Shown: positions 1 through 37,850 of the stretch, piece after piece
Numbering within the stretch: position 1 is the first letter of the stretch
How the letters are laid out: each line of letters begins with the position of its first letter
Source: Candidatus Multivoradales bacterium
GTDB lineage: Bacteria > Acidobacteriota > Thermoanaerobaculia > Multivoradales > Multivoraceae
DNA: 64,000 nt
Reading direction: 5' to 3'
Assembly (NCBI GenBank): GCA_965223325.1
Contig: CBDCWI010000002.1
Span: forward strand, 3,840,001-3,904,000
Made by a program: the position numbers and the translations under genes
Notes under the pieces: model-generated
Seen by the model: the letters and a program-made list of their open reading frames with translations, nothing else
Told to the model about the DNA's origin: nothing
Databases searched by the model: none

Positions 1-1
1 T

Positions 2-886
2 CGTGCGCTCTGCGCTGTCACCCGAGAGTGGTTGGCGGCCCAGGACGAAGTACAGCCCATTGGTGTTTGTTTTTCGGGCGGCATCGACAGCGGTGCGGTC
101 CTCATGGCGCTCCATCACGAACTCTTGGAGAGCGGGCAGACCGCGCAACGCCTCAAGGCCTTCACGCTGCGGGTACATGGCGAAGACGGCACTGCCGGCA
201 CCGACGCGGAACAGGCGCTCGCGTTCCTCCGCCACGTCGATCTCGAGATGCTCGCCGAGGTGATCGATGTCGATGCCGCGACCCTTGACCCCTACCGCGC
301 GATCGATGTGATCGAAGACTACAAACCGCTCGATGTCGAGTGCGCCACCGTGTCGATGGCGCTGCTCGAAGAGATCCGCAACCGTTATCCCGAATGGCGC
401 CTACTGGTCGACGGCGACGGGGGTGACGAGAACCTCAAGGACTACCCCATCGAAGAAAACTCGGAGCTCACTATTCGGTCGGTGGTCGGCAACCGCATGC
501 TCTACCAGGAAGGGTGGGGGGTCGAAGCGGTGAAACACTCCTTGACGTATTCAGGCGGCATGAGTCGCGGCATGGTGCGCACCTGGGGCCCCCAACGCCA
601 CTTCGGCTTCCGTGGCTTCAGTCCCTTCACTCGGCCGCAGGTCATCGAAGTGGCCGAGGCGATTCCCTTCGATGCGCTCTCTGAGGGCTCGCACGAGCGT
701 CTCTACGCCCTCAAAGGTGAAGTCATCCGTCGCGGCATGAAACGAGTTCTGGAGGTGGACTTTCCGGTCTACGAGAAGCGCCGCTTTCAACACGGTGCCC
801 CCTCCGAGGGCGTGTTCGCCGAGGTGTTCGACGTCCCGCCCGAGACCTACCGGCGCTACTGGTTAGACGCGAAGCGTCCGGCTTGA
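2..886 (+). CDS. Asparagine synthase-like (PP-loop ATP pyrophosphatase / amide ligase) protein, 5'-truncated by window edge
   Basis: Frame is open from base 2 (RALCAVTREWLAAQ...). PP-loop GVCFSGGIDS; DGDGGDE resembles the Asn synthase SGEGADE motif; C-terminal SPF...K..IR...KRRFQHG. Stop overlaps the next start (TTGA). Confidence 0.8.
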   Translation, partial: RALCAVTREWLAAQDEVQPIGVCFSGGIDSGAVLMALHHELLESGQTAQRLKAFTLRVHGEDGTAGTDAEQALAFLRHVDLEMLAEVIDVDAATLDPYRAIDVIEDYKPLDVECATVSMALLEEIRNRYPEWRLLVDGDGGDENLKDYPIEENSELTIRSVVGNRMLYQEGWGVEAVKHSLTYSGGMSRGMVRTWGPQRHFGFRGFSPFTRPQVIEVAEAIPFDALSEGSHERLYALKGEVIRRGMKRVLEVDFPVYEKRRFQHGAPSEGVFAEVFDVPPETYRRYWLDAKRPA

Positions 887-1743
887 CCACCGCCGAGCCA
901 GGCAAGGTGGGCCGGCAAGCGCCCCTCGACGTCAAGTTCGAGTTCGAGAGGCAGCCGGAGGGAGCCGGCGAGGCGCCGGTGATGACGGTTTTCCTTGCCG
1001 GCGCGCGCTGCCCGCTGGCTTGCACCTACTGCGACCTCGAGCAGTACACGGTTGACCGGCCGACACCGCGGGGCTCGCTGCCGGCGCAGCTCGAGAACGC
1101 TTTGAGTCTCCACCGTGCCCGCCAGAGCTCCTTTGGTCTGCCGGCCGATACAGCAGTCAAGCTCTACAACGCCAGCAACTTCTTCGAGGCGCGGGCCGTG
1201 CCGGCGGGCGATGACGAAGAAATGCTGCGTCAGCTCGAGGGCTATCGACAGGCGATCGTCGAGTGCCATCCGAAGATGATTGGCGAGCGGGCGATCTCGG
1301 TGATCGCGGGTTCGCCGGTTCCGGTGCAGGTTGCGATGGGTCTCGAAACGAGTGATGCCGACCTTCTCCGCCGGCTCGACAAACGTGCCCGCCCCGAGGA
1401 CTTCAGAGCGGCAGCTGAACACCTTCACGCTGCGGGTGCCTCGCTGCGCGTGTTTCTCCTGGTAGGGCTGCCGGCCGCTTCGCGCGAGGAGATGACCGCA
1501 GGAGTGATGCGCTCGGTCGACTACGCGCTCGATCTCGGTGCCGAGGTAATTTCGTTGATTCCCTTACGGCCAACGACCGAAGCCATGCGTGCTGCGAGAA
1601 GAGCGGGTGAATTGCCACCGGTTGATCGGGGGCTACTCGACGAGCTCAGTGAGCAGGCCGCGGGGCGGGCCAAGGCGACGGGCGCGGTGGTGCTGGTCGA
1701 TCCCTGGGATCTCGATGAGGCGGCCGAAGGCGCCGATGCCTGA
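883..1743 (+). CDS. Radical SAM protein, TIGR01210/RaSEA (Elp3-like) type
   Basis: CxxxCxxC (CPLACTYC); KLYNASNFF, ECHP and MGLETSD motifs resemble the archaeal TIGR01210 family; no SPASM/twitch cysteines. Confidence 0.8.
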   Translation: MTTAEPGKVGRQAPLDVKFEFERQPEGAGEAPVMTVFLAGARCPLACTYCDLEQYTVDRPTPRGSLPAQLENALSLHRARQSSFGLPADTAVKLYNASNFFEARAVPAGDDEEMLRQLEGYRQAIVECHPKMIGERAISVIAGSPVPVQVAMGLETSDADLLRRLDKRARPEDFRAAAEHLHAAGASLRVFLLVGLPAASREEMTAGVMRSVDYALDLGAEVISLIPLRPTTEAMRAARRAGELPPVDRGLLDELSEQAAGRAKATGAVVLVDPWDLDEAAEGADA

Positions 1744-1751
1744 AGAAGCGC

Positions 1752-3365
1752 ATGCCCAAAGAGAAACAATGTGACGTAGCGATCGTGGGGGCCGGCTTCG
1801 CCGGGTCGCTCTTGGCGCGCCTGCTCGCGATCCAGGGGCGTGCTGTGGTGCTCATCGACTCCTCTACCACGATCTCTTCGGGCTTGAAGCTCGCTCTCGG
1901 TGAGTCGACGACTCCGCTCGCCAACCTGGCGCTCGAACGGCTCGCGCGGCGCTATGGCCAGGAAGACCTCTGGGACCTGGCAACCTACGGGCGGTGGAAG
2001 AAGCGACTGGCCCATCTCGGGGTTGGGCGCAAGCGCGGCTTCACCTTCTATTCGCACCGCGCCCAAGAGGACTGGCGCGCGGGTGTCGATGGGCGGTTGC
2101 TGGTTGCCGCGTCACCTGACGACGAGTCGTCAGATACCCAGTGGTGGAGGGCTGACGTCGACCGACACCTCTTCGAGCAGGCAGTCATCGCTGGAGTGCA
2201 CTCGATTGAGGGCACTCGCCTGCACTCGATCGAACCCTCGAAGTCTCGAGGCGAGGTCGCTAGTTCGCGGCTTATCCTCGAACGCGACGGGAGGGCGGTT
2301 CCGCCGGTTGCAGCACGGATCGTTGTCGATGCGAGCGGTGGTTCCGCTGCAGTCGCACGTCGCCTGGGAGCGGCGAGCCGAAACGTCGCCTCGCCGCCAA
2401 CCCGCCTCCATGCTGGCTGGTTCGAAGGAGTCTTGCCGTTCGAAGAGGCAGTTGCGACCGGTCGCCTGCCGACAGACCCTTACCGTGAAAGCGAAGCCGC
2501 GGTCCATCATCTGACGCCGATGGGTTGGTGCTACAGCTTGCGCTTCGATCACGGCGTCACCAGTGCCGGGTTCGTTGCGCGCTCGCCGGCCGCAGAGACT
2601 GCGGCTGCCAATGCATCTGCTTCGAGCGGGGTCGAGGAGTTCACGCGGAACCTGAGCCCCTACCCGTCCCTTCGTTCTTGTTTCCAGGGCGCGCGCGCGC
2701 TGGCGCCCCTCGTCTTGAGCAATGCTGTACCGCGACGCTTGGACCGCGTGGCGGGTGCCGGCTGGGTCGCCCTGCCGCACGTCTATGCATTCTTCGATCC
2801 GCTCTATTCAACCGGCATCGCATGGAGCCTGCGCGCCGTCGAGCGGCTTGCGTCTCTGCTGGGTGCGGGCGAGCTGTCGACAGACCCGTGTACGTTTGGT
2901 GCGTACGCGCGGTTGCTCGCATGCGAAGCCGACCACCTCGACGAGCTCAACGCCGGTGCGTGGAAGGTGCAGGGTGACTTTGCGCGGTTCGAGCATCACG
3001 CCCTGCTCTACTTCGCGGCCGCCAGCTTCTGTGAGAGCCGCGAACGCCTCGTCGATTTTCGCGGCGCCCAGGGCTGGGCGAAGCGCGGGTTCCTGGGAGC
3101 CGACGACACAGCGATTCGGTTGGCCGTCCGCGAGATGTTCACCGACCCACCGAGAGAGGCACAGGCCTACCGGGAGCGCATCAAGCAGTTGATCGAGCCC
3201 TTCGACGTCGTCGGGTGGCTTGATGCCGACCATCGTCGAGAGGTCTATCCGGCGCTGTTGGAGGCGGTGTTGGAACGCGCCGCGAAGCTCGGCCTGTCGC
3301 CGTCGGAGGCAGCGGCGCGTCGTGGCCGCATGGTGAGTGGTGACCTGATGCTTGAGGCAGAATGA
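1752..3365 (+). CDS. Flavin-dependent halogenase-family protein (tryptophan halogenase/PrnC-like)
   Basis: GAGFAG FAD motif, LGESTTP, RKRGF (candidate catalytic Lys), VDASG, GWCYSLRF (variant of WxWxIP), FFDPLYSTG (FxxPxxSxG). Confidence 0.75.
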   Translation: MPKEKQCDVAIVGAGFAGSLLARLLAIQGRAVVLIDSSTTISSGLKLALGESTTPLANLALERLARRYGQEDLWDLATYGRWKKRLAHLGVGRKRGFTFYSHRAQEDWRAGVDGRLLVAASPDDESSDTQWWRADVDRHLFEQAVIAGVHSIEGTRLHSIEPSKSRGEVASSRLILERDGRAVPPVAARIVVDASGGSAAVARRLGAASRNVASPPTRLHAGWFEGVLPFEEAVATGRLPTDPYRESEAAVHHLTPMGWCYSLRFDHGVTSAGFVARSPAAETAAANASASSGVEEFTRNLSPYPSLRSCFQGARALAPLVLSNAVPRRLDRVAGAGWVALPHVYAFFDPLYSTGIAWSLRAVERLASLLGAGELSTDPCTFGAYARLLACEADHLDELNAGAWKVQGDFARFEHHALLYFAAASFCESRERLVDFRGAQGWAKRGFLGADDTAIRLAVREMFTDPPREAQAYRERIKQLIEPFDVVGWLDADHRREVYPALLEAVLERAAKLGLSPSEAAARRGRMVSGDLMLEAE

Positions 3366-4186
3366 GCACCATGCAGAAGAGAAAGTGCCCGGTCCTTCTT
3401 GGACTCTTGGCGCTTCAACTCGTAGCGCTCGCGGTCTCAGGTTGCGGCCCTGGCGACGATTCCACGAGTCCTCTGCCTGAGTTGAGGATCCTGGCGGCTG
3501 CTTCTCTCGCCGACGTCGTGGGCGATCTGGTGGCGGCCTTCGAGTTGGAAAGCGAACGCTTTGCGGCGGAGGTGTCTTTTGCGGGCTCGAATTCTCTTGC
3601 CAGGCAGATCGTGGCCGGAGTTCCGGCCGACGTTTTCCTCTCGGCTGATGAGTTCTGGGCGCAGCACGTTGTCGCCGAAGGAGTCGCCGATTCCACCTCG
3701 CTCGAGCGCTTTGCGGGCAACCGATTGGTGGTCATCACGCCAGCCGAACAGCAGCTCGCCCATGAAGGCTGGCCCGAAGCCCTGCTCGAGGTCGAGCGCC
3801 TGGCACTGGCCGATCCCGAAGGTGTGCCCGCCGGTCGCTACGCACGCGCTTGGCTCGAGTCGCGAGGGCTCTGGGAACAGCTCGCTGAACGGGTCGTGCC
3901 CACGCTCGATGTTCGGGCGGCTCTCTACAGCGTCGCAAGCGGCAGTGTCGACGCCGGTCTTGTCTATGCCACCTCGGTGCGTACGGCTGGCATGTCGACA
4001 GATCGTGTGGCGGTTGTCTATGAGGTCACCGGTGACGCCGTTCCTGAGATCGGCTACTGGAGTGTGTTGGTTGCTGCATCCGGAGCGGGCAGCGACCAAC
4101 GCACGGCGCGGGCCTTTCAGCGCTTTCTCACCTCTCCAACCGGCCGCGACATCTTGAAGCGCCACGGCTTCGAGGGCGGTGTCTAG
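3362..4186 (+). CDS. modA: Molybdate ABC transporter substrate-binding lipoprotein
   Basis: Lipobox VSGC; AAASL, FAGSNSLARQI, ADVFLSAD, VPAGRYA, GLVYAT motifs. Confidence 0.92.
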   Translation: MSTMQKRKCPVLLGLLALQLVALAVSGCGPGDDSTSPLPELRILAAASLADVVGDLVAAFELESERFAAEVSFAGSNSLARQIVAGVPADVFLSADEFWAQHVVAEGVADSTSLERFAGNRLVVITPAEQQLAHEGWPEALLEVERLALADPEGVPAGRYARAWLESRGLWEQLAERVVPTLDVRAALYSVASGSVDAGLVYATSVRTAGMSTDRVAVVYEVTGDAVPEIGYWSVLVAASGAGSDQRTARAFQRFLTSPTGRDILKRHGFEGGV

Positions 4187-4918
4187 GTGGAAGGTACGTC
4201 ACTGCCCGGGTTTTGGCCGGTCCTTGTGCTCACCCTTCAAGTGGCGGCGCTGGCGACCGTGTTGGTTCTGGTGCCGGGCACCGCGCTGGCGTTCGCGCTC
4301 GCCCGTCGTGGTTGGCGAGGTCGCTCAGTGATCGAAGCCCTGGTGAATCTGCCCCTCGTCCTCCCACCGACGGCAACCGGCCTGGCGCTTCTCCTGTTGT
4401 TTTCTCGCCGTGGTCCGTTGGGGAGTTTCCTGCACGGGACTCTGGGGATCGACATCGCGTTCACTTTCTGGGCGGCCGTCCTGGCGGCGGCTGTGGTTGG
4501 GCTGCCACTCTACGTACGTTCCGTGAGAGGTGCGCTCGAGGAGCTCGATCCACGACTGGTGGGGATGGCGCGCTCGCTTGGCCACACACGTCGCTCGGCG
4601 CTCCTTCACGTTGAGCTGCCGCTGGCCTGGCGCGGTCTGGTGGCGGGATCGCTCATCACGTTCACGCGCGCTCTCGGTGAGTTCGGTGCGACGGTCTTGT
4701 TTGCGGGCAACATTCCAGGTCGCACACAGACGATTGCGTTGGCCCTCTTTCAACGCGTCCAGGTTGGTCGGGACCGTGAGGCGCTCATGCTCGCCGGCGT
4801 GGCGGCGCTCGTCGCGTTCGTCGTTCTGCTTATCGCGGAGCGCTTCGAACGCCGCCGCCTGGAGGGGCTCGACGACGGTGCGATCGTCTTTTCTAACCCT
4901 GTGGGAGAGCGGCGATGA
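4187..4918 (+). CDS. modB: Molybdate ABC transporter permease
   Basis: LPLVLPPT, FTRALGEFGAT, AGNIPGRTQT; hydrophobic helices. Confidence 0.93.
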   Translation: MEGTSLPGFWPVLVLTLQVAALATVLVLVPGTALAFALARRGWRGRSVIEALVNLPLVLPPTATGLALLLLFSRRGPLGSFLHGTLGIDIAFTFWAAVLAAAVVGLPLYVRSVRGALEELDPRLVGMARSLGHTRRSALLHVELPLAWRGLVAGSLITFTRALGEFGATVLFAGNIPGRTQTIALALFQRVQVGRDREALMLAGVAALVAFVVLLIAERFERRRLEGLDDGAIVFSNPVGERR

Positions 4919-6006
4919 GCGCCGGACCCGCGCATGAGCCCACTCCGGGGACGCTCGAGATCAACCTCAGCCTGCCCCTCGATCGCTTCGATCTCACTGT
5001 CGACGAGACCTTTTGTGGTGCCGCCGCCATTCTCGGGCCGAGCGGCGCCGGCAAGACCTCGTTACTCGAAGCGCTTGCCGGCCTGCGACGAGCGTCGGGC
5101 CGGGTCGCCTTTGCCGGCCAGGAGTGGCAGAACGACTCGATGTTTCTGGCTCCCGAACGGCGGTCGGTCGGCTACGTGCCACAAGACGCCCTCTTGATGC
5201 CGCACCTCTCCGTGCGCGCCAACCTCGGGTTCGCACAACCGGTCCGAGAAGTGACCGACGGGGGGTCTCTTGCCGACGTCGTCAGGCACCTGGGCCTCGA
5301 GCCACTGCTTGACCGTTCGCCTCGGCATCTCTCGGGAGGAGAACGCCGCCGCGTGGCCCTGGTGCGCGCTCTCGGGCGCCGCGCCTCGCTGCTCCTGCTC
5401 GACGAACCCACCGAAGGCCTCGACCCGGTCATGTCACGGCTGGTCGTTGGCGTTCTGCGCCGTCTGGCGCGTAGCGGGCAGGCGATGGTGGTCGTCACCC
5501 ATCGCCAAGACGTTGCCGAGGCCGTCACCGAACGCATCCTCAGGCTCGATCGCGGCCGCGTTGTCACCGACTCCGAAGCAACAGGTCTGCGTGGCGACGA
5601 GGTCCTGCTCCCCGGTCGTGTCGAGGCGCACGAACAAGACGACGGAATCACCCGGATCGCCCTCGAGCCCGCCGGCGGTAGCGAACCCCAAGAGGTCCGG
5701 ATTCCGCTCCATTCAGATCTAGAGCCCGGAGACGAAGTCGTGATCGCGATTCCCGCCCGCGACCTGATGGTCTCGATCGTAGAACCCAGTGGCCTTTCCG
5801 CCCGCAACGTCCAGCCAGCCGTCGTCGATGCCCTGGTGCCGAACGCCGCCAGCGACGAAGGCGCCGGATCACCAGCCGTCGACCTTACAGCCGGCCACTG
5901 GCGCGCCCGGCTGACCCACTCCGCGGTGCGCGAACTCGACCTCGCTCCAGGTAGAGAAGTCTGGTTGGTGAGCAAGAGCCATTCGTGGAGGGTGGTTTCG
6001 TCGTGA
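4915..6006 (+). CDS. modC: Molybdate ABC transporter ATP-binding protein
   Basis: Walker A GPSGAGKT, LSGGE, LLLLDEP; C-terminal TOBE-like region with LSARN. Confidence 0.9.
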   Translation: MSAGPAHEPTPGTLEINLSLPLDRFDLTVDETFCGAAAILGPSGAGKTSLLEALAGLRRASGRVAFAGQEWQNDSMFLAPERRSVGYVPQDALLMPHLSVRANLGFAQPVREVTDGGSLADVVRHLGLEPLLDRSPRHLSGGERRRVALVRALGRRASLLLLDEPTEGLDPVMSRLVVGVLRRLARSGQAMVVVTHRQDVAEAVTERILRLDRGRVVTDSEATGLRGDEVLLPGRVEAHEQDDGITRIALEPAGGSEPQEVRIPLHSDLEPGDEVVIAIPARDLMVSIVEPSGLSARNVQPAVVDALVPNAASDEGAGSPAVDLTAGHWRARLTHSAVRELDLAPGREVWLVSKSHSWRVVSS

Positions 6007-6149
6007 TGTTGTATGTGCTGGTCGCACCTCGTGTCAGAGGGCAGTATTCTCAGACCGCCTTCCCTCAATCGAGCCGACAAGAGACCGGAAGACTCATGGT
6101 GACGAAAAGCCGACAAGACATCGCTTCGCCTAGGGCCGGGTCTCGGATG

Positions 6150-6470
6150 AAACCACGCTTTGTCACCTTCGAGGGCATCGGCGGTTTCGATATCTCGACG
6201 CCGAGCCGCCCCTCCAAAGCGCGACCCGCAGGTGCATGGTCGTGAGAAAACCACGCTTTGTCACCTTCGAGGGCATCGGCGGTTTCGATATCTCGACGCC
6301 GAGCCGCCCCTCCAAAGCGCGACCCGCAGGTGCATGGTCGTGAGAAAACCACGCTTTGTCACCTTCGAGGGCATCGGCGGTTTCGATATCTCGACGCCGA
6401 GCCGCCCCTCCAAAGCGCGACCCGCAGGTGCATGGTCGTGAGAAAACCACGCTTTGTCACCTTCGAGGGC
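6150..6470 (+). repeat. Tandem direct repeat, 98-bp unit, 3 identical copies plus a 27-bp partial copy lying inside the tmk 5' end
   Basis: AAACCACGCTTTGTCACCTTCGAGGGC recurs at 6150, 6248, 6346 and 6444; the intervening 71 bp are identical in the three full copies. Confidence 0.97.
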
Positions 6471-7118
6471 CTCGATGGGAGCGGCAAGTCGACGCATTTG
6501 CGGCGTGTTCTCGAACGACTGCAAGCTGCCGGCGAGGCGGTGGTGGCGACGCAGGAACCGGGCGGTACGCCGTTGGGTGAAGGCATTCGGAGTCTTTTCT
6601 TGGATCGCAACCTCGGTGAGATCGATGGTCGAGTCGAGTTGATGCTGGTGTTTGCGAGCCGGCGGCAGCACATTGCCGAGGTCATCGAGCCGGCGCTGGC
6701 GGCCGGTCAGCATGTTCTCTGTGATCGCTTCACCGATTCGACGACGGCCTACCAGGGCTACGGGCGTGAGGTGCCGCTTGTGGACATCCGAACGATCGAT
6801 CAGATCGCCACCGGCGGCCGGGTGCCGGACCGAACGATCTTCTTCGATGTTCCGGCCACCACCGCGCGAGAACGCGGACAGTCGAAGGCGCGGCGCGCCG
6901 GGAAAGACGGTGGTGTCGACCGGATCGACGCCGAGGCACTCCAGTTCTACGAGAAGGTGCGTCGGGGGTATCTCGAGATCGCAGAGCGCAACGCGCACCG
7001 CTTTCGGCGGGTCGACTCGACCACCAGGCACGAGCGCACCGAGCGCGCGGTCGCCGAGGCGTTGGTCGACCTGTTTCCGTCGCTCGAACCATTCGCCCAA
7101 CCGGCGAGTCGTCGATGA
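6438..7118 (+). CDS. tmk: Thymidylate kinase (start GTG 6438 or ATG 6432; the longer ORF from 6258 is repeat read-through)
   Basis: FVTFEGLDGSGKST P-loop, TQEPGGT, CDRFTDSTTAYQG; followed by holB as is typical. Confidence 0.95.
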   Translation: MRKPRFVTFEGLDGSGKSTHLRRVLERLQAAGEAVVATQEPGGTPLGEGIRSLFLDRNLGEIDGRVELMLVFASRRQHIAEVIEPALAAGQHVLCDRFTDSTTAYQGYGREVPLVDIRTIDQIATGGRVPDRTIFFDVPATTARERGQSKARRAGKDGGVDRIDAEALQFYEKVRRGYLEIAERNAHRFRRVDSTTRHERTERAVAEALVDLFPSLEPFAQPASRR

Positions 7119-7987
7119 GCGAGTCGCGAGAAGACGGCGGTGCCCTCGCTCGCGTGTTGGACCAGACGCGCGCGGGGCGGCTGTACCCCGGTGTGATCCT
7201 GCACGGGGCTGACGATGAACGGCGGCTCGAGGCGGCGCGCGAGATCGCGCGCACCCTGCTTTGTGAAGTTGAGCCGAGCGAGCGCCCCTGCGGTGCCTGT
7301 CGCCAGTGCCGGCGGATCGTCCTGCCGAGCGATGACGACGACCGTTTCCATCCAGACTTCGTGGTTCTAGAGCGCGACCTGCGCACCTCCACCTCTGCCG
7401 ATGCGGTTCGCCGAATGCTGCGGGCGGTGCAACTCCGTCCGTTCGAGGGCCGGGGCCAGGTCTTCGTCGTGGCGAGCGCCGAAACGCTCACCGGTGGCGC
7501 CGCCAACGCCTTGCTGAAGAACCTCGAAGAGCCACCAACCACGGCGCCGCGCCACTTTCTCCTCTGTGCGCCCTCGGCCGTCGAACTCTTGCCGACCTTG
7601 CGCAGCCGCTCTTTGTCTGTTTACCTGGGCGGTGCCGATCGCGCTCTCGAAGAAGATGCCGTCGCCAGCCTCGTCTGGGAGCTGGCGACCTGTATCGACG
7701 GGTACGCTTCTACTGGCTCGGCGAGCTATCTCTTGGCCATGTCGCGCGCCGCGCACTCTGCGACGCGTTGGGACGATCCGCGCGCGATGGCGCCCTGGAA
7801 TCTGGTCGCTGCGGCGGTTCTTCGTCTCGGCCGCGATCAGAATCGATCGCCGGCCCTGCGCCGCGCCCTGCTCGAGCTTTCCGAGGCGCTGCTCGAAGCG
7901 ATCGATCAAAGGGTGCGTGGAGTTCCGGCGCAGCGGATCCTCGATGGTGCGATCAGTCGCTGTCTCTCGCCGGTTCGACCTGCTTGA
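7115..7987 (+). CDS. holB: DNA polymerase III subunit delta'
   Basis: PCGACRQC zinc motif, HPDF, AANALLKNLEEP, LLPTLRSR; downstream of tmk. Confidence 0.88.
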   Translation: MSESREDGGALARVLDQTRAGRLYPGVILHGADDERRLEAAREIARTLLCEVEPSERPCGACRQCRRIVLPSDDDDRFHPDFVVLERDLRTSTSADAVRRMLRAVQLRPFEGRGQVFVVASAETLTGGAANALLKNLEEPPTTAPRHFLLCAPSAVELLPTLRSRSLSVYLGGADRALEEDAVASLVWELATCIDGYASTGSASYLLAMSRAAHSATRWDDPRAMAPWNLVAAAVLRLGRDQNRSPALRRALLELSEALLEAIDQRVRGVPAQRILDGAISRCLSPVRPA

Positions 7988-8231
7988 GTGGCACTGCTGG
8001 GCGTCAAGATCCCTTTCTGTTGGAACAATCGCGGTGATCTGTAGTTGATACGATCGCGAACCGCGGCTCAGAGTCCCCTGCTCGGGCTCCGGCGCGCCTC
8101 CCCAGCCGCACCAGTGCGGTTGGCGTGATGCCAGCCCGGTGAAAGTCGCCCCACCTTTACGAGTCCCCAATCAAGACAGGACCGGGCCGTTGATTCGATG
8201 CCCGCTTTCCGTTTCTCTCAGGAGTTTCTTC

Positions 8232-9299
8232 ATGACCTATCGAGCCAAAGGTTCAGAGCGTCTCTTCTTGTTCGTCCCGGTCGCACTAGCAGGGGTCCTG
8301 CTCGCCTGCGGCAACACGGTTACCGCTCAGGATTCGAGTGAACAGTCGTCCGATGAGGTCGTGCTCAAAGTGCAGGGCAAAGACTTCACCCTGGCGGATG
8401 TCGAGGCCAAGGCCTCCGACACCCTCGATCAGGTAGCCGCCGCTCGTCAGGCATGCGAGATGGAGGCCGACAAGAACCGCCACACGGTCCTGGCGAACAC
8501 TGCCGAGCAGATGGTGCGCGAACTTCTGATCGAAGAGCAGGCTGAGAAGGCAGGTGAAGACCCGAAGGTCTGGCTGGCCGCCGAGAAGGCCCGCCAGATG
8601 GCCGCCGTGTCAGACGAACATGTCGATAGCTGGTACACCGCCAACCAGGCGCGCCTCCGCGGTCGTGCCAAGGAAGAGATTGCCGAGCAGATCAGGGACC
8701 TCCTGGCGACGGAGAACCTACACTCGTCTTTGCGCGAAGCCGCCAGCGTTGACGTCAACCTCGATCCCTACCGCCTCGAAGTCGCCGCGGTCGATGCGCC
8801 GTCGAAGGGCGCTGCCGATCCCAAGATCACGCTGATCGAGTTCTCCGACTTTGAATGCCCCTTCTGCGGTCGCGTCAACCCGTCGCTGGCACAGGTGATG
8901 GAAACCTATGGCGATAGCGTTCAGGTCGTCTTCCGTCAGTTTCCACTCGAGTCGATTCACCCGAACGCCCGTAAGGCCGCAGAAGCAGCCCTCTGCGCGG
9001 AAGAGCAGGGCAAGTTCTGGGAGATGCACGATCTGCTCTTTGCCGAGCAGAAGGAGCTCGGTGTCGATCAGCTCAAAGACAAGGCAGTGCGGCTCGAGCT
9101 CGACACTGAGGCCTTCAACGCCTGCCTCGACAGCGGCCGCAAGACCGAGATCGTCGACCGCGACCTGCAGGCCGGTTCGGCTGTCGGGGTGACCGGAACG
9201 CCGGCGATGTTCATCAACGGGCGTCCCCTGGTGGGTGCGGTGTCGTTCGAAGACCTCGCCAAGGTCATCGACGACGAGCTCGAGCGGGTCGCGCCCTAG
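8232..9299 (+). CDS. DsbA/thioredoxin-fold lipoprotein with helical N-terminal domain
   Basis: SD CAGGAG before ATG 8232; lipobox LLAC; EFSDFECPFC active site; GVTGTP cis-Pro motif. Confidence 0.88.
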   Translation: MTYRAKGSERLFLFVPVALAGVLLACGNTVTAQDSSEQSSDEVVLKVQGKDFTLADVEAKASDTLDQVAAARQACEMEADKNRHTVLANTAEQMVRELLIEEQAEKAGEDPKVWLAAEKARQMAAVSDEHVDSWYTANQARLRGRAKEEIAEQIRDLLATENLHSSLREAASVDVNLDPYRLEVAAVDAPSKGAADPKITLIEFSDFECPFCGRVNPSLAQVMETYGDSVQVVFRQFPLESIHPNARKAAEAALCAEEQGKFWEMHDLLFAEQKELGVDQLKDKAVRLELDTEAFNACLDSGRKTEIVDRDLQAGSAVGVTGTPAMFINGRPLVGAVSFEDLAKVIDDELERVAP

Positions 9300-9345: not shown

Positions 9346-10839
9346 ATGAGTGACGGGTCCTCCGAGCCAGCAAGGTTCAACAGTCGGCCCGATCGAGGAG
9401 ACATCCCGGACGATGAGTTCCGGGAGGCCCTCGATCGTGTCGCTGAGATCGCTGCGTCTTACCTTGCCTCCGTCGAGCGGTTCGACGTTCTTCCGGCGAT
9501 CTCGCCAGGAGATGTCGCAGCGCAGATCCCGTCGGCTCCACCGGAAACGGGCGAGCCCTTGGAACGCTTGATCGACGACTACAAGGCCTTCATCGAACCC
9601 AACGTCACTCACTGGAACCACCCGGGGTTCATGGCCTACTTCGGGATCACCGGTTCGCGACCGGGTCTGCTTGGTGAGACGTTGGCGGCCTCCTTGAACG
9701 TCAACGCGATGTTGTGGCGTTCGTCACCGGCTGCAACCGAGCTCGAAGAGCGGGCAACGGATTGGCTGCGCCAGCTGGTGGGTCTGCCCGAGGGGTTCGT
9801 GGGCCACATCAACGACACGGCCTCGATTTCGACCATGTTGGCGCTTGCGGCGGCGCGCGAAGGCCTCGGTTTCGATGTTCGCGAGAAGGGGCTCGCCGGG
9901 CGCTCCGATGTGCCGCCTCTCGTGACCTACACCAGTGAGGAGGCGCACTCCTCGGTCGACAAGGCTGCCATGACGCTCGGACTGGGTCATGCCAACGTTC
10001 GCCGCATCGGTACCGACGAGGGTTTCGCACTTGATCCCGATGCCCTGCTAGCGGCGATCGAGGCCGACCTCGCCGCCGGCAGGAAGCCGTTGGCGCTCGT
10101 GGCGACCGTCGGCACGACATCGACGACGAGCGTTGACCCGGTCGCGGCTCTTGTGCCGATCTGTCGGCAATTCGGGATGTGGCTGCACGTCGACGCGGCC
10201 TATGCCGGCTCAGCTGCGGTTTGTCCCGAGCTACGCCGTCATTTCGACGGTTGGCAGGAGGCCGACTCGGTGGTGATCAACCCCCACAAGTGGTTGTTTA
10301 CCCAGGTCGATTGCTCGGTGCTGTTTCTCCAGGACCCGACGCTTCTCAAAGCCGCCTTTTCGCTCGTGCCGGCCTATCTCGAAGACGATGATGGGGCAAC
10401 CAACCTGATGGACTACGGCCCGCAGCTCGGTCGTCGCTTCCGGTCGCTGAAGCTGTGGTTCGTCATGCGGGCCTTCGGCGCGGAGGGCTTGCGCTCGAGA
10501 ATCCGTGGCCACTGCGAGTTGGCCCGCGAGCTCGGGTCGTGGGTCGAGAGCGATCCTCGTTTCGAGATGCTTGCGCCCGCACCTTTCAGTACGGTGTGTT
10601 TCCGGGCAGTCGCTCGAGGGTGCACCCCGGAGGAACTCGATGTGTTCAACCGTGCCCTTCAGAACGCGGTCCACGAAAGCGGTGCGGCGTTCATCTCCCA
10701 AACCCAGGTTGAAGGTCGGTTTGCCTTGCGCTGCGCGATCGGCAATATCAAGACCGAGCGCCGACACGTCGAGCGCCTGTGGAAGTTCCTGGGCGAGAGC
10801 TACGACCAGCTGGCGGCGAGCAACCCGGTCGAGAGGTAA
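9346..10839 (+). CDS. PLP-dependent aromatic L-amino acid decarboxylase (group II)
   Basis: HWNHPGFMAYF, SSPAATELE, AHSSVDK, HVDAAYAG, NPHKW (PLP lysine), PAYL loop, GRRFRSLKLW. Confidence 0.9.
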   Translation: MSDGSSEPARFNSRPDRGDIPDDEFREALDRVAEIAASYLASVERFDVLPAISPGDVAAQIPSAPPETGEPLERLIDDYKAFIEPNVTHWNHPGFMAYFGITGSRPGLLGETLAASLNVNAMLWRSSPAATELEERATDWLRQLVGLPEGFVGHINDTASISTMLALAAAREGLGFDVREKGLAGRSDVPPLVTYTSEEAHSSVDKAAMTLGLGHANVRRIGTDEGFALDPDALLAAIEADLAAGRKPLALVATVGTTSTTSVDPVAALVPICRQFGMWLHVDAAYAGSAAVCPELRRHFDGWQEADSVVINPHKWLFTQVDCSVLFLQDPTLLKAAFSLVPAYLEDDDGATNLMDYGPQLGRRFRSLKLWFVMRAFGAEGLRSRIRGHCELARELGSWVESDPRFEMLAPAPFSTVCFRAVARGCTPEELDVFNRALQNAVHESGAAFISQTQVEGRFALRCAIGNIKTERRHVERLWKFLGESYDQLAASNPVER

Positions 10840-10845
10840 CGCTTC

Positions 10846-11550
10846 GTGAGTGGAAAGTTCAAGGACTATTCTTTCGAACGCCTCGATGCAGCAGAGATGG
10901 AGTCGCGGGCCCAGCTCTTTTTCGAGGAAATGGATGCACGTCGTAGTGTGCGCGACTTCTCGTCCGATCCCGTGCCGCGTGAGCTGATCGAAACCGCCAT
11001 TCGGGCAGCATCCACGGCTCCGTCGGGCGCTCACCGCCAGCCCTGGCGTTTTGTCGCGGTCTCTGATCCCGAGATCAAGCGCCGCATTCGTGAGGCGGCG
11101 GAGCACGAGGAGTACATTTCCTACGAAGGTGGGCGGATGCCCGAGGAGTGGCTCGAGGCGTTGGCTCCTCTCGGAACCGACTGGCGAAAGCCCTTCCTCG
11201 AGACTTGCCCGTGGATCGTGGTGGTCTTCGCCGAGCTCTGGGGCTACGGCGAGAGCGGAGCACGCCGCAAGAACTACTACGTCAAGGAAAGCGTTGGGCT
11301 GGCGTGTGGACTCTTCATCGCGGCGCTTCATCGCATGGGCCTGGCCACCCTCACCCATACCCCGAGTCCGATGGCGTTCCTGTCCGAGATTCTTGGCCGC
11401 CCAAGAAACGAGAAGCCGTTCATTCTTTTCCCGATCGGCTATCCCGCGGACGACTGCCAGGTGCCGGACATTACCCGCAAGGATCTTTCGGAGGTGGCCA
11501 TCTGGGACCCACAGGTGACCGTGCCGTCGCCGTCTGACGATGACGGTTAG
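10846..11550 (+). CDS. Iodotyrosine deiodinase-like FMN nitroreductase-family protein
   Basis: RRSVRDFS, TAPSGAHRQPW, lid EEYISY...TDWRKPFL, YVKESVG, LTHTPSPM, all characteristic of the IYD subgroup. Confidence 0.85.
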   Translation: MSGKFKDYSFERLDAAEMESRAQLFFEEMDARRSVRDFSSDPVPRELIETAIRAASTAPSGAHRQPWRFVAVSDPEIKRRIREAAEHEEYISYEGGRMPEEWLEALAPLGTDWRKPFLETCPWIVVVFAELWGYGESGARRKNYYVKESVGLACGLFIAALHRMGLATLTHTPSPMAFLSEILGRPRNEKPFILFPIGYPADDCQVPDITRKDLSEVAIWDPQVTVPSPSDDDG

Positions 11551-11586
11551 CGGCGCGGCGACCTGGCGCTCCAAGAGCCCAGATCG

Positions 11587-13110
11587 ATGACGTGCGGAGA
11601 ACGTACAGGAGCGTCGTCAAGGGCTCTGTTGGCCGCCCTGGCGCTCCTGGTCGCTTTCGCGCTTCTTCGTTTCGTTGGGCTCGAGGCAGACTTTCCGGTT
11701 GGACTGACGCATTCGTTCGGTCCGCTCACCGATGAGGGCTACTACGCCGCACCCGCGGTGCGTTCGGCCGCCGGTCAGCCCGCCCATCAACCGGGTGGAT
11801 TCAACTCGCAGATCCTGACGCCAGTCTCGCCGTTCTTGCAGTCGCTGATGTTCGAGAGCGTCGGTGTTTCGCTCGGCACGGCGCGACTACCCAGCGTGGT
11901 TCTTTCGTTGGCTCTGTTCGCACTCCTGGTGACGGTCGTCTGGCGTCGAGTAGGTCCCTGGCCGGCAGTTGTTCTGGGAGCAGTTCTCACCTCTCACTGG
12001 CAGACTTTCGTCTACAGCCGCGTGGCGCTGCTCGATCTGCCGGTGCTCTTCTTTTCCGTCTTGGCAATGGTGCTGATGAACCGAGCCCTCGAGCGCTCGG
12101 GCGGAGGCACCGAGAGGGATGCGATCCTGGCCGGTTTCGTGCTTGCTGTAGCGGCACTTTGCAAGCTCACCGCGGTGACCGTCGTCCCGGCGCTCCTCTT
12201 CGTTGGCTGGCGCGGTGGGAAGAGTCGACTTCGGGTGCTTTCCCTGGTCGGTGGCACGTGTGCGGCGGTGCTGTCCGCCTGGTTCGCGGGCGTGGCGCTT
12301 CCCTATCGTGACGATGTGATGCTCTTTCTGTCGGTCAACGCGCGATCGACCTGGATCGGTTGGTTCGATGAGTTCCACTTGCTCGTGGGCTTCGCAAAGA
12401 GTCTCGCTGCAATCGATCCGCTCGCGGTGGTGGCCGTTGCCCTGGCGCTGCCCTGGGGTGTTCGCTACATCAGCGCCGGCCTACAGGGCCAACGTGTGGG
12501 CGGCGGTCTGTACGGGGGCTTCTGGGTGTTCTGGGCGTCCTACCTGCTCTTCCTCGTCTACTCCGACTACCGCCCGGTGCGGTACCTGACCCCGTGGCTT
12601 CTTCTTTCGGTGGTGCTGGCGACCTGGACGGCCACGCTTGCCCTCCGTAGTACGCGTTCCGAAGCGTTGGCGGGCAGGATCCTGGTGGGCGTTCTCTGCC
12701 TCCAGGTGGTGCTTGGCGTCGCCCGTCAGGGACGCGAACTCTCACGGCTCGAGTATGGTTTTCGGGATGCTGCTCGGGAGATCACGCTCATCGCCGGCGA
12801 CGACGCGGTCCTTTACGGTCGCGCTGTTCAACAAGTGCTGCTCGCGGTCGGTGGCCCTGCCGGGGCGACCGCGGTCACCGAGGACTTCGGAACCTGGTCG
12901 GTCGAACGCCGCATAGAGAGCTACCGGCCGACTCACTACATGCAGTTCGGGCCAGCCACGTCGGCGAGTCGCGATGCCTTGCGTCCGCTCGGTGAGCTGG
13001 TCCTGCTGCAGCGCTTCCCGTTTCTTGCGAAGTATGGATACGACGGCGTCGATGCCGTTTATCTCTATCGCGTCGAGGCGCCGCTACCGCTTGCTGCCTC
13101 AGGCCGATAG
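11587..13110 (+). CDS. ArnT/PMT-like (GT-C fold) membrane glycosyltransferase
   Basis: DEGYY after the first TM helix, ARLPS, SRVALLD, LCKLT; about 11 hydrophobic segments. Confidence 0.7.
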   Translation: MTCGERTGASSRALLAALALLVAFALLRFVGLEADFPVGLTHSFGPLTDEGYYAAPAVRSAAGQPAHQPGGFNSQILTPVSPFLQSLMFESVGVSLGTARLPSVVLSLALFALLVTVVWRRVGPWPAVVLGAVLTSHWQTFVYSRVALLDLPVLFFSVLAMVLMNRALERSGGGTERDAILAGFVLAVAALCKLTAVTVVPALLFVGWRGGKSRLRVLSLVGGTCAAVLSAWFAGVALPYRDDVMLFLSVNARSTWIGWFDEFHLLVGFAKSLAAIDPLAVVAVALALPWGVRYISAGLQGQRVGGGLYGGFWVFWASYLLFLVYSDYRPVRYLTPWLLLSVVLATWTATLALRSTRSEALAGRILVGVLCLQVVLGVARQGRELSRLEYGFRDAAREITLIAGDDAVLYGRAVQQVLLAVGGPAGATAVTEDFGTWSVERRIESYRPTHYMQFGPATSASRDALRPLGELVLLQRFPFLAKYGYDGVDAVYLYRVEAPLPLAASGR

Positions 13111-13122
13111 CATCCCGGCGCC

Positions 13123-14181
13123 ATGCAGATTCATGCCCTCATTCTCGCCGGCGGCAGCGGCACCCGTTTCTGGCCGTCCTCTCGCCGTTCCCGTCCCAAG
13201 CAACTCCTCCCGCTCGGCGGCGACGACAGTCTTCTCCATCGCACCGTGAAACGAATCTCCGCCTCGGTCCCCGCCACCAACGTCTGGGTGTGCACCACCG
13301 AAGCTCTTGCCGACGATGTCGCCGTCGACCTGCCGATGGTGCCCAGGGAGCAGATTCTCGCTGAGCCCGAGGGGCGCAACACGGCGGCCGCGATTGGGTG
13401 GGCGGTGGCGATGATGCCCGAGGAGGTCCGGAGAGGTGTGATCGCGATGCTGCCGGCGGATCATCATGTCGAGGACCCGCCGGCGTTCTGTGCTGCGCTC
13501 GAGAGTGCGGCGGAGATTGCCGCTGCCGGGAAACAGGTTCTGACCCTCGGGGTACGACCGACGCGAGTGGAAACCGGCTATGGCTACCTGGAGCTCGAGC
13601 GTCTGCCCACGGGTGGTCTCGACGCGGTGACGGTTGCTCGCTTCACCGAGAAGCCAGATCTAGCGACGGCGGAGGAGTTCGTCAGCGGTGGTCGGCACCT
13701 GTGGAACGCCGGTATTTTCGTCTTCAGCGGCAGTTTGATGCTCGACCTGCTGACGCGCCTCCAGCCTGAGCTCGCGCGTGGCATCGAGAGCGTCACGGCG
13801 GCTGTCGATACCAAAGAAGCCAGTTCCCTCTATGCAGAGCTCGAGTCGATCTCGATCGACTACGCCGTCATGGAACGTCTGGACGATCTGCTCACGATTC
13901 CACTCGATTGTGGCTGGACGGATCTCGGTTCCTGGGAGGCAATCGCCGAGCTCCTCGCTGGCGACGCGGGCGACAATCGAGAGCGCGGCGACGTGATCGC
14001 GATCGACGCGACCGACAACCTGCTGTGGGCAGACGAGGGCACGGTAGCGGTGGTCGGTATCGAAGGGCTCGTCGTCGTGCGCACCGGTGACTCCGTCCTC
14101 GTGATTCCCCGTGAGCGGGCGCAGGATGTCCGCTTGATTGTCGAACGCTTGCGCGCCGATGATCGCTCCGATCTTCTCTGA
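13123..14181 (+). CDS. manC: Mannose-1-phosphate guanylyltransferase
   Basis: ILAGGSGTRFWP, PKQLL, EPEGRNTA, PADH, FTEKP, WNAGIF, SIDYAVME, WTDLGSW. Confidence 0.92.
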   Translation: MQIHALILAGGSGTRFWPSSRRSRPKQLLPLGGDDSLLHRTVKRISASVPATNVWVCTTEALADDVAVDLPMVPREQILAEPEGRNTAAAIGWAVAMMPEEVRRGVIAMLPADHHVEDPPAFCAALESAAEIAAAGKQVLTLGVRPTRVETGYGYLELERLPTGGLDAVTVARFTEKPDLATAEEFVSGGRHLWNAGIFVFSGSLMLDLLTRLQPELARGIESVTAAVDTKEASSLYAELESISIDYAVMERLDDLLTIPLDCGWTDLGSWEAIAELLAGDAGDNRERGDVIAIDATDNLLWADEGTVAVVGIEGLVVVRTGDSVLVIPRERAQDVRLIVERLRADDRSDLL

Positions 14182-18562: not shown

Positions 18563-20212
18563 ATGGTCGACGAAAGCGGAGCGCGCTTCCTACGATCCGG
18601 CGAATTCGTCGTAGACCGCCGGGCGCGCGAACTCCACCGGGGTGAAGACCGCGTGGCGATTCAGAACAAGCCGCTGTGCGTTCTAGAGGCACTGCTTGTC
18701 GCCGGCAACGACGTCGTGACACGTAGCGAATTGGCTGCCGTGCTGTGGCCCGGGGTGGACTATGTCGATTCTGAGAACGGTATCAACACAGCGGTGCGCA
18801 AACTGCGCGATGCCCTCGGGGATGCCGCCGACGCACCGCGATTCGTCGAGACCGTGCCACGAGTCGGCTATCGCTGGCTGGGCGCCGTAGAGGAGTCGTC
18901 TCTCGCTACCGTCTGCAGGGAGGTCACTCAAACACCGCAGGGCGTCGAGTTCCCGGTTCGGCAGTTGGCGGCCGGGTGGCGTGGCGCTGTGGCGGTTGCA
19001 GCCGTGGTTGCCGTCATGGGTCTCGTTCTGGCGTTGGCCTATGGCGGCGACGAGGCATCTCCGACGCTTCCTGAGAGCCAGGAGGCCAGGGATGCTTGGC
19101 GCGAAGCACGCTTCCTGCTCGAGGGCCCGGCGCTTGGTTCCCTACCAGCCCAGGTCGATCGTCTCGCCGAAGCCACCCGGTTACTCGAACGCGTTGTCTC
19201 GTACGACCCTGGTTTTGGCCCGGCGCACGGCCATCTCGCCCAGACCCTCGTCTTCCGTCTCTTCTCGCGGCGAGAGTGCGAGGACTGCGAGAGCAGAGTA
19301 CGGGAGGCGGTTGCGAGAACGCTCGCTCTTGATCCCGAACAACTCGAGGCCAACCTGGCCGCGGCGCAGATCGCGTTGGTGCTCGACTGGGACGCCGCGA
19401 CGGCGAGCAAGCACATCGACCTCGCACAGAGCGTCGCACCTGAGTCGGGAGAGGCATGGTTGGTACGGGCCAGCTGGCTCGCCGCCGTCGGACGGTCCCC
19501 GGAAGCCGTCGTCGCCGTCGAGCGCGCCATAGACTCTGATCCCGGCTCGAACCTGATCAGGGGCGACCTCGGCTTCTTTCTGCTGGCAGCAGACCGTCCG
19601 CAGGAAGCCCGCGTTGTGTGCGAGCGCCTTGGCGAGCTCGAGCCCTCCTTCCAGCCAGGCCTGCGCTGTCGATTGCTGGCGCATCTGGCGCTCGATCAAG
19701 ACAGCGAGGCCGAGCGGGTTGCTGCACAACTGCTGTCGAGCCTGGCCGGAGCCTCTGTGGAAAGCGAGGACGAGCACCTGGCACCACCGACAGCGCAACA
19801 GGTGCCAGCCCTCGAGCTCTACCTCGAACGCAATCTCGCGCGCGCCGAGAGCTCTGGCCGCGCACTTTCGATTGCCGGAGCTCTCGCCCTGATGGAGCGT
19901 AGAGACGAAGCGCTCGATGCCCTCGAGGAAGCCGTCGCCAATCGTGAGCTCATGCTGGCGATGCTCCCGCTCTTCGCAGAGTTTCGAACTCTGCGCTACG
20001 AACCGCGATTCCTCCGTTTGATGGATCAGATCGGCATCGTCGAGACCGCCCCGCCAGGAAAGGGCAAACGGAGCGCGGTTGACCAGAAGCACGTCGCTAG
20101 CTGGCACAGTTTGCGCCCGAGGCGGCATCGCGCCATCCTCTACCCTTGGCCCGCTGCCTCTCCATCTTCGTCGTGGACGGGAATAGAGAGTGAGCGGCTC
20201 CTCCAGATGTAG
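18563..20212 (+). CDS. CadC/ToxR-type winged-helix regulator with TM segment and TPR-like domain
   Basis: VVTRSEL...LWP, INTAVRKLRDALGD, FVETVPRVGYRW; one TM helix; helical repeats. Confidence 0.85.
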   Translation: MVDESGARFLRSGEFVVDRRARELHRGEDRVAIQNKPLCVLEALLVAGNDVVTRSELAAVLWPGVDYVDSENGINTAVRKLRDALGDAADAPRFVETVPRVGYRWLGAVEESSLATVCREVTQTPQGVEFPVRQLAAGWRGAVAVAAVVAVMGLVLALAYGGDEASPTLPESQEARDAWREARFLLEGPALGSLPAQVDRLAEATRLLERVVSYDPGFGPAHGHLAQTLVFRLFSRRECEDCESRVREAVARTLALDPEQLEANLAAAQIALVLDWDAATASKHIDLAQSVAPESGEAWLVRASWLAAVGRSPEAVVAVERAIDSDPGSNLIRGDLGFFLLAADRPQEARVVCERLGELEPSFQPGLRCRLLAHLALDQDSEAERVAAQLLSSLAGASVESEDEHLAPPTAQQVPALELYLERNLARAESSGRALSIAGALALMERRDEALDALEEAVANRELMLAMLPLFAEFRTLRYEPRFLRLMDQIGIVETAPPGKGKRSAVDQKHVASWHSLRPRRHRAILYPWPAASPSSSWTGIESERLLQM

Positions 20213-23280: not shown

Positions 23281-23294
23281 TCCGTTCTCCGGTC

Positions 23295-26107: not shown

Positions 26108-26312
26108 GAGAGTGTCCGTTCCATGGTGTTCACGGGAGTCGTTCTCTCGCATTCGCGACTGCGAATGCGCTAGCGTCTGAAGCGTTGGCACCGGTGGACC
26201 ACGCTTTCAAGACTCAAGCGAACACGGGTGGATCTCGCGCTAGAAACGCGTAAGAGGTGTGTCGGCGTCTTACGGAGGAGAAGAGGGCACAAGCCCTAAG
26301 CGCAGCGCAGGC

Positions 26313-37845: not shown

Positions 37846-37850
37846 AGCCC

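Follow-up and report, generated by a model that had tools for sequence, protein, structure and literature searches.

At its 5' end, the 64,000-bp stretch of DNA analysed here (the window; positions 3,840,001 to 3,904,000 of contig CBDCWI010000002.1, from a Candidatus Multivoradales bacterium) carries three co-directional plus-strand open reading frames (ORFs), all of which lie within the first 3.4 kb in the ORF list. They encode an asparagine-synthetase-fold PP-loop protein (AsnL), a radical S-adenosylmethionine (SAM) enzyme and a flavin-dependent-halogenase-family protein, referred to below as the flavoprotein (Table 1). The module is real, conserved and uncharacterized, and its conserved core is the pair of adjacent radical SAM and flavoprotein genes. 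Its genes recur in other bacteria of soil and marine origin.

The three ORFs are genuine genes. The TTG start codon of the radical SAM gene shares bases with the TGA stop codon of AsnL in the TTGA at positions 883–886, and an 8-bp gap (positions 1744–1751) separates the radical SAM gene from the flavoprotein ATG at position 1752. The GC content at third codon positions is 0.75–0.78 across the trio, similar to that of the adjoining genes, and the overall GC content at the trio exhibits no anomaly. At E ≤ 0.001, 1063 homologues of the radical SAM enzyme, 2846 of the flavoprotein and at least 8000 of AsnL were found. The three coupled genes, the TTGA overlap and the 8-bp gap had been described in an initial annotation of the sequence, and each of these is seen in the DNA letters and in the ORF list. 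The three enzyme classes proposed there are likewise borne out, since each protein scores above the gathering cut-off of its Pfam family (Asn_synthase, 46 versus 21 bits; Radical_SAM, 35.5 versus 29.5 bits; Trp_halogenase, PF04820, 43.9 versus 21 bits) and the expected motifs are readable in the sequence. A promoter and terminator scan of positions 1–8200 returned sites no more numerous than in shuffled sequence.

Table 1. Features of the AsnL–radical SAM–flavoprotein locus; positions are those of the window except in the last row
Feature	Position	Strand	Basis or remark
AsnL	2..886	+	Pfam Asn_synthase, 7.6e-12; open at the 5' edge of the window
PP-loop ATP pyrophosphatase motif SGGIDS (AsnL)	74-91	+	Read from DNA
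Radical SAM enzyme, 286 aa	883..1743	+	Pfam Radical_SAM, 1.4e-08
CxxxCxxC (C43, C47, C50), [4Fe-4S]/SAM cluster-binding motif (radical SAM enzyme)	1009-1032	+	Read from DNA
Flavin-dependent-halogenase-family protein, 537 aa, PltM/CtcP-like	1752..3365	+	Pfam Trp_halogenase, 1.9e-11
GAGFAG, GxGxxG FAD motif (flavoprotein)	1788-1805	+	Read from DNA
Lys94 (flavoprotein)	2031..2033	+	Aligned with catalytic Lys87 of PltM
WCYSLR, drifted counterpart of WxWxIP (flavoprotein)	2526..2543	+	Alignments
modA-modB-modC molybdate ABC transporter	3362..6006	+	NCBIfam; translationally coupled to the trio
AsnL match in locus L001	8008-8787		59% identity to window AsnL (tblastn)

Sequences and predicted structures of the three proteins

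The window contains the 3' two thirds of the AsnL gene (294 codons, encoding the C-terminal 294 residues), and the window edge removes approximately the first 150–170 codons. The SGGxDS motif is kept in all 30 rows of the AsnL family alignment (A1), the profile of which matches the window copy at 9.4e-155, and the PP-loop and the Pfam score together place AsnL in the PF00733 superfamily. Full-length homologues consist of about 445 residues with a mean column identity of 60%, and their named records belong to Acidobacteriota and Gemmatimonadota. The N-domain of these homologues is degenerate, and the N-terminal (M)C that provides the glutaminase nucleophile is present in none of the 29 full-length sequences. 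AsnL falls outside the glutamine-hydrolysing AsnB proper family, scoring 37.3 bits against the TIGR01536 cut-off of 267.1.

The two-domain fold was tested on a full-length homologue (P0121) that is 59% identical to the window fragment, the window's own N-domain lying outside the window. The P0121 model has a predicted local distance difference test (pLDDT) score of 81.8, and both of its domains, an N-terminal nucleophile (Ntn)-like N-domain and a synthetase domain, match the superfamily in Foldseek. The best matches are β-lactam synthetase (1mc1; 2.7e-13, TMq 0.61) and AsnB (1ct9; 6.2e-12), followed by the carbapenam synthetase CarA (1q15; 2.2e-11) and TsnB9, over about 450 aligned columns. 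The AsnL homologues are thus predicted to have the two-domain AsnB/β-lactam-synthetase fold, and they share this fold and the SGGxDS motif with β-lactam synthetase, CarA and AsnB. The GDGGDE block of AsnL aligns with GEGSDE of human ASNS. At the sequence level the distance is large, with profile E-values of only 1.1 to β-lactam synthetase and 0.0023 to ASNS. In β-lactam synthetase and CarA, the N-domain likewise lacks a working glutaminase. The most conserved part of the AsnL family is a near-invariant block of about 50 residues (DGDGGDENLKDYPIEEN...LYQEGWGV..KHSL.YSGG.SR; P0121 residues 294–346, approximately window positions 410–570), located mostly within the lowest-confidence segments of the model (residues 304–317 and 328–341), a location compatible with a mobile lid, a partner-binding surface or an interface.

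One AsnL homologue from a Gemmatimonadaceae record (P0219, 531 aa) carries about 47 additional N-terminal residues of an ABC-transporter Walker-A region. This extension is probably a gene-call or frameshift chimera and suggests that, in the genome concerned, AsnL is immediately preceded by a gene for an ABC ATPase.

The radical SAM enzyme is assigned to the PF04055 superfamily by its CxxxCxxC motif, which is kept in all 33 rows of its family alignment (A2), and by a partial TIM-barrel fold. Its structural model (pLDDT 89.4) yielded 141 Protein Data Bank (PDB) matches at E ≤ 0.001 in Foldseek, and the matches listed are radical SAM enzymes, including Elp3, MgmA, AprD4, PFL-AE and MiaB; the highest template modelling scores (TM-scores), up to 0.65, are to Elp3. 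Of the curated families, RaSEA (TIGR01210) is the best match in 33 of 33 members, with a best E-value of 4.5e-25, and MnmL/YtqA (TIGR01212) is matched by 11 of 33. The window copy lies outside the RaSEA equivalog family, with 2.5e-14 and 53.3 bits against a cut-off of 212.15, a bit score that stands for this copy only among the 33 members. By these matches, the enzyme is a distant relative of RaSEA, the radical SAM protein that cooperates with ArcS to make archaeosine. It resembles RaSEA, MnmL and Elp3 in being a small single-domain protein with an N-terminal CxxxCxxC motif and an Elp3-like fold. It differs from RaSEA in that the genes are bacterial, the partner is a halogenase-like flavoprotein and most members carry an extra CxxC pair. 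In neither the window nor the related loci described below was a neighbouring ArcS, PUA or archaeal-type TGT gene detected, and a preQ0-tRNA context is likewise absent; a TGT-family gene (PF01702, queuine tRNA-ribosyltransferase) is located 26 kb away at positions 29098–30324.

The extra pair comprises two C-terminal CxxC motifs in a Cys-rich tail. The window copy lacks the RxLR..DPWxP stretch present at the N-terminus of most homologues, and neither this stretch nor the Cys-rich tail is recoverable from the frames adjoining the gene. A hidden N-terminal extension inside AsnL was considered and rejected: the frame at positions 721–882 has no start codon and is unlike the family N-terminus. The tail is also absent from another homologue (P0009). 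The tail may form a zinc ribbon or hold an auxiliary cluster that the enzyme can do without, or its absence may reflect decay. At E ≤ 1e-30, a library of 1.84 billion sequences yields 488 representatives of the radical SAM family. None of the 150 listed has the length that a full fusion to the flavoprotein or to AsnL would require, and in five of the longer ones Pfam detects no domain other than Radical_SAM. In a tblastn search of 72,556 plasmids, neither the radical SAM enzyme nor the AsnL homologue P0121 gave a match.

The flavoprotein belongs to the Trp_halogenase family. Its GxGxxG motif is found within the first 70 residues in 27 of the 28 rows of the family alignment (A3). PltM, the phloroglucinol halogenase of the pyoluteorin pathway, and CtcP, the tetracycline 7-halogenase, are its closest characterized relatives. 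In a single-sequence phmmer search of the PDB, the flavoprotein matched CtcP at 4.5e-23 and PltM at 1.4e-19. With the 28-sequence profile, the E-values fell to 7.6e-69 for PltM and 8.1e-68 for CtcP, in alignments of about 410 positions, and other halogenases (Mpy16, ChlB4, CmlS, PltA, CndH, Bmp2 and RadH) followed at about 1e-29 to 1e-35. QhpG was not among the 60 matches listed of the 86 to this profile. The Lys residue aligned with PltM K87 is invariant (28/28 rows). In the accessible part of the PltM report, the K87A variant is inactive, a mutagenesis primer places K87 in the sequence ACGIKLGFSF and the enzyme acts on free small phenolic molecules (PMC6424973). A further invariant block of the flavoprotein, LLVAASPDD..AD..W.RADVD, aligns with the PltM segment that holds L111, a pocket residue according to the same excerpted source (PMC6424973).

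The flavoprotein thus shares with PltM and CtcP the GxGxxG motif, GES.TP, an F.DP..S.G-like motif and the catalytic Lys. It differs in a conserved, family-specific C-terminal part of about 120 residues and in the position of its gene, which adjoins a radical SAM gene among core genes and not a polyketide cluster. A third difference concerns the WxWxIP motif, the halogenase signature, which has become W-x-Y-x-L-[R/P]. Because WxWxIP is not kept, the flavoprotein was filed as a halogenase-family protein and not as a proven halogenase; halogenation by it is plausible from its sequence. A QhpG-type monooxygenase, suggested by the top NCBIfam match, was rejected as the primary call, the profile being far nearer to PltM and CtcP and QhpG being missing from the matches listed.

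Gene order and genomic setting

Scanning one genome per species with six peptide patterns of the flavoprotein identified five further loci. L001 derives from another member of the Multivoradales (Acidobacteriota), and L002–L005 are four syntenic records of one Verrucomicrobiota clade. Flanks were examined up to 10 kb, with 7.1 kb available upstream in L004 and a contig of 4.5 kb in L003. In all six loci, the window included, the radical SAM gene adjoins the flavoprotein gene, lying immediately upstream of it in L001–L005, and the flanking genes of the pair differ between lineages. The complete AsnL–radical SAM–flavoprotein trio occurs in two of the six loci, the window and L001, in wholly different flanks. 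Between these two, AsnL is 59% identical, the radical SAM enzyme 35% and the flavoprotein 37–41% (two tools). In L001, a UvrD/PcrA helicase gene lies upstream and overlaps AsnL by 10 bp, the intergenic gaps of the trio are under about 70 bp with no peptide-sized gap, and the flavoprotein gene is followed by a convergent GNAT gene (11543–12199) and then a glycosyltransferase gene. In L002–L005, the pair is located between RNase III and NfeD/DnaA, and NfeD directly follows the flavoprotein gene in L002.

Short ORF fragments lie between the RNase III and radical SAM genes of L002 (8611–8955), one of which has a weak GNAT match below the cut-off (E 0.024). A link between GNAT proteins and the pair, drawn from the L001 gene and this possible remnant, was discarded because the remnant is too weak; the recurrence is probably coincidence.

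Linkage was also assessed by counting identical longest-contig sizes across the top-120 match lists of the three families against the number expected by chance from the near-miss density. AsnL and the flavoprotein share five sizes (0.75 expected), AsnL and the radical SAM enzyme three (0.88 expected), and the radical SAM enzyme and the flavoprotein two (0.8 expected); several of the contigs shared in size are 4.5–13 kb long. A complex prediction for the flavoprotein and the radical SAM enzyme from the two family alignments scored 0.00, which is no answer and counts neither way.

The initial annotation treated the trio as a unit. That the trio recurs in L001 amid other flanks sustains this view, and the distribution qualifies it, with AsnL at two of six loci and the pair at all six. 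The unit might accordingly be the radical SAM–flavoprotein pair only, with AsnL as a separate conserved housekeeping amide synthetase that is upstream by chance. This distribution speaks for such a reading, as does the higher conservation of AsnL between the window and L001, which could reflect a different selective regime. It is opposed by the 4-bp overlap of AsnL with the radical SAM start in the window, by the adjacency of AsnL in L001 although all other flanks differ and by the shared contig sizes of AsnL with the flavoprotein (5 versus 0.75) and with the radical SAM enzyme (3 versus 0.88). The Verrucomicrobiota genomes could, moreover, encode AsnL beyond the flanks examined. On balance, we hold the pair-only explanation to be unlikely.

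Downstream of the trio, the stop codon of the flavoprotein gene overlaps the start of modA in the ATGA at positions 3362–3365, and modA, modB and modC, which together encode a complete molybdate ABC transporter, are contiguous with no gap or a 4-bp overlap. The packed string in the window therefore comprises six genes, the trio and modABC, a coupling to modA that the initial annotation did not mention. ModA scores 141 bits with TIGR01256 (cut-off 62.5) and ModB 209.8 bits (cut-off 182.6); ModC, which has a TOBE domain, scores 200 bits, under its cut-off of 285. The transporter genes follow the pair in the window and in none of the five other loci: tblastn gave no match to modA or modB in L001–L005, and a weak modC-like ABC-ATPase match (28.6–29.1%) lies several kb downstream in L002, L004 and L005. 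modABC probably shares an operon with the module without belonging to it.

The remaining window is core genome, with tmk, holB, a trmB-like methyltransferase gene, tgt, yajC-secDF, relA/spoT, pilMNOPQ, accBC, aroK and the Ccm system, together with a Cus-type efflux pump. Apart from modABC, no transporter, regulator, precursor peptide or ribosomally made, post-translationally modified peptide (RiPP) recognition element (RRE) domain was seen beside the trio, either in the window or at L001. The core-genome setting makes a conserved pathway likelier than a biosynthetic gene cluster of the usual strain-specific kind.

Candidate functions of the module

In the reading that we favour, and to which we give about an even chance of being correct, the genes form a conserved, chromosomally embedded module for tailoring a metabolite that the cell makes elsewhere and that is small and probably aromatic; they form neither a self-contained nor a RiPP cluster. 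AsnL would adenylate a carboxylate of the substrate and then convert it to an amide or lactam, the nitrogen donor being free ammonia, an amine within the same molecule or a second amine. As AsnL has no glutamine-hydrolysing Cys, the amide nitrogen would not come from glutamine. The flavoprotein, using FADH2, O2 and halide, would halogenate an electron-rich ring through Lys94. Since WxWxIP has drifted, it may hydroxylate the ring instead, if the drifted motif exposes the flavin. The radical SAM enzyme would contribute one step on the same substrate, initiated by hydrogen abstraction. A small aromatic substrate is favoured because the nearest characterized relatives of the flavoprotein act on free phenolic or polyketide rings and because its invariant block aligns with the PltM L111 segment. 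The acidic-to-neutral isoelectric points (pI) of the three families, with medians of 5.5, 5.9 and 6.4, favour the same substrate class and do not suggest nucleic-acid binding.

Several points weigh against this reading. All of its chemical steps are inferred from family membership. In the 28 aligned flavoproteins, the first Trp of WxWxIP is invariant (28/28), the second is retained in 3 and replaced by Tyr in 25, the Ile is retained in none and replaced by Leu in all 28, and the Pro is present in 12. The NCBIfam model of QhpG matches all 28 members, with a best E-value of 6.4e-21, and that of GoxB matches 23; the CmlS and LodB models match 27 and 14, respectively. In the available portion of its report, QhpG has a halogenase-like fold, and the halogenase CmlS is its nearest structure (PMC7876137). 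Together, the QhpG and GoxB matches and the halogenase-like fold of QhpG make hydroxylation, or a protein substrate, possible. No flavin reductase gene is present at the window locus or with the L001 trio. The window radical SAM enzyme lacks the Cys-rich tail carried by 28 of the 33 members. AsnL was not found in the flanks of L002–L005, a search with the family hidden Markov model included, and its absence from four of six flanks means that AsnL may be a non-obligatory member. Because L002–L005 represent one clade, the independent sample amounts to three lineages, and the shared longest-contig sizes are an indirect sign of linkage. The halogenated product proposed in the initial annotation consequently stands in part: the catalytic Lys is kept in 28 of 28 sequences, and the drifted WxWxIP leaves halogenation itself uncertain.

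The module might instead modify a macromolecule, either a tRNA or rRNA nucleoside in the style of RaSEA, MnmL or Elp3, or a Trp or other residue of a protein in the style of QhpD and QhpG. The family matches of the radical SAM enzyme (RaSEA as the best match throughout, MnmL/YtqA in one third) and its structural similarity to Elp3 point to the former, and the matches of the flavoprotein to QhpG, GoxB and LodB point to the latter. The very strong conservation of AsnL and the housekeeping neighbours (RNase III, DnaA, UvrD, tmk and holB) are also consistent with such a role. The scores are, however, far under the curated cut-offs (RaSEA, 53 versus 212 bits; QhpG, 46.8 versus 240 bits, both for the window copies), and the flavoprotein profile is far nearer to PltM and CtcP (1e-68), with QhpG missing from the 60 of 86 matches listed. 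The pI values are acidic to neutral, and the locus showed no RNA-binding domain, whether ArcS-like, PUA or of another type, nor a gene for a candidate target protein. At the gathering threshold, Rfam gave no match in the window, L001 or L002. Macromolecule modification is thus considered rather improbable.

A parallel for the pair is QhpD and QhpG, in which a radical SAM enzyme and a halogenase-fold flavoprotein are likewise paired, maturing the cysteine tryptophylquinone subunit QhpC. The likeness ends at a weak match (best 6.4e-21, below the 240-bit cut-off), and no QhpA, QhpB or QhpC gene lies nearby. QhpD is, moreover, a larger SPASM-type enzyme and is not TIGR01210-like.

It is very unlikely that the trio ends a secondary-metabolite cluster, of the RiPP or another type, whose precursor peptide and other genes lie upstream of the window. 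AsnB-like, radical SAM and flavin halogenase enzymes all occur in RiPP pathways, and the ammosamide pathway joins the flavin halogenase Amm3, the substrate of which is a small aromatic acid, with Amm20, a putative Asn synthetase for which amidation of that acid's carboxylate has been proposed (the accessible part of PMC12715798). That pathway combines two of the three enzyme classes. It differs from the module in being a large Streptomyces cluster derived from peptide aminoacyl-tRNA ligase (PEARL)/RiPP chemistry, with a precursor peptide and proteases, and in having no true radical SAM enzyme, Amm10 being without the Cys motif (same excerpted source, PMC12715798); the comparison covers the enzyme classes as described. 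In L001, the trio is hemmed in by the overlapping helicase gene and the convergent gene, and its short gaps leave no room for a precursor gene. Neither a precursor gene nor an RRE, protease or exporter domain was found there, and Pfam detected none of these domains around the trio in the window either. The Verrucomicrobiota pair sits between RNase III and NfeD/DnaA, and the conservation and phyletic breadth are untypical of a strain-specific cluster. The expectation in the initial annotation that a precursor peptide, transporter or glutaminase would appear upstream is not supported, given the UvrD/PcrA helicase gene at that position in L001 and the N-terminal Cys count of 0/29 in AsnL.

A role in molybdenum or tungsten metabolism, with the trio co-transcribed with modABC as the ATGA overlap and the gapless run through modC would allow, is likewise highly improbable, given that modABC follows the pair at none of the five other loci, that no modA or modB match and only a weak ABC-ATPase match several kb off (L002, L004 and L005) were found there and that molybdenum-cofactor families are not among the matches of the three proteins.

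The enzyme superfamilies are known; their combination and setting are undescribed. In the full-text literature (subscription journals lay outside the search), no paper was found that describes AsnL, a radical SAM enzyme and a halogenase together, in agreement with the initial annotation, which knew of no described pathway, and TIGR01210 is mentioned in no paper of the literature searched.

The small-molecule tailoring module that we favour can be extended to a more specific proposal that we regard as speculative and improbable. In it, the pair, joined by AsnL in Acidobacteriota-type lineages, would constitute a near-housekeeping pathway that is widespread in understudied phyla (Acidobacteriota, Gemmatimonadota, Planctomycetota and Verrucomicrobiota) and leads to an aromatic amide, halogenated or hydroxylated, that serves as a signal or in a cofactor-like role. 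RaSEA cuts the lysine adduct made by ArcS on preQ0. By analogy, in the boldest variant, AsnL would ligate the amine of an amino acid to the adenylated carboxylate and the RaSEA-like radical SAM enzyme might then cut off the carbon skeleton of the donor, so that the amide nitrogen would be installed without a glutaminase.

The three superfamilies are prized for hard chemistry, namely ATP-driven amide or lactam formation, radical C–H activation and site-selective halogenation. In this module their members make up a conserved core-genome unit of poorly studied phyla, and none of the three subfamilies has a published function in the literature searched. Were the flavoprotein a true halogenase, the reaction would be routine and widespread among Acidobacteriota, Verrucomicrobiota and related bacteria of soil and sea, not a rare specialized trait, and the enzyme would add to the PltM/CtcP-like biocatalysts a new one that comes with a fixed partner. 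Were it a hydroxylase, this family would show where halogenases and monooxygenases diverge, with the Lys kept and WxWxIP lost. Either way, a function for the module would be the first functional assignment for the radical SAM family.

Other features of the window

Beyond modABC, several further gene groups were observed. A 386-aa protein (positions 8139–9299) joins a DsbA/thioredoxin domain to an N-terminal region that weakly resembles SurA_N, scoring under the Pfam cut-off, a pairing that is, to our knowledge, uncommon. The following plus-strand run (positions 9346–14181) encodes a pyridoxal 5'-phosphate-dependent decarboxylase (Pyridoxal_deC, 2.5e-96), a nitroreductase-family protein, a PMT_2-type membrane glycosyltransferase and a mannose-1-phosphate guanylyltransferase-like nucleoside triphosphate transferase, and may represent a small group for cell-envelope or metabolite modification.

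The minus strand carries a Cus-type heavy-metal resistance-nodulation-division (RND) efflux operon at positions 20140–26191, consisting of genes for an outer-membrane factor, an HMBD membrane-fusion protein and an AcrB-family pump, with a Trans_reg_C and TPR regulator gene upstream (positions 18563–20212). An ORF with a LolA domain (positions 27980–29203) overlaps the start of the queuine tRNA-ribosyltransferase gene by about 100 bp, and one of the two starts is probably miscalled. A type IV pilus region spans positions 36790–46215, in which pilM, pilO and a pilQ-like secretin gene with AMIN domains are followed by two genes encoding TIG/PKD/Big_1-domain proteins.

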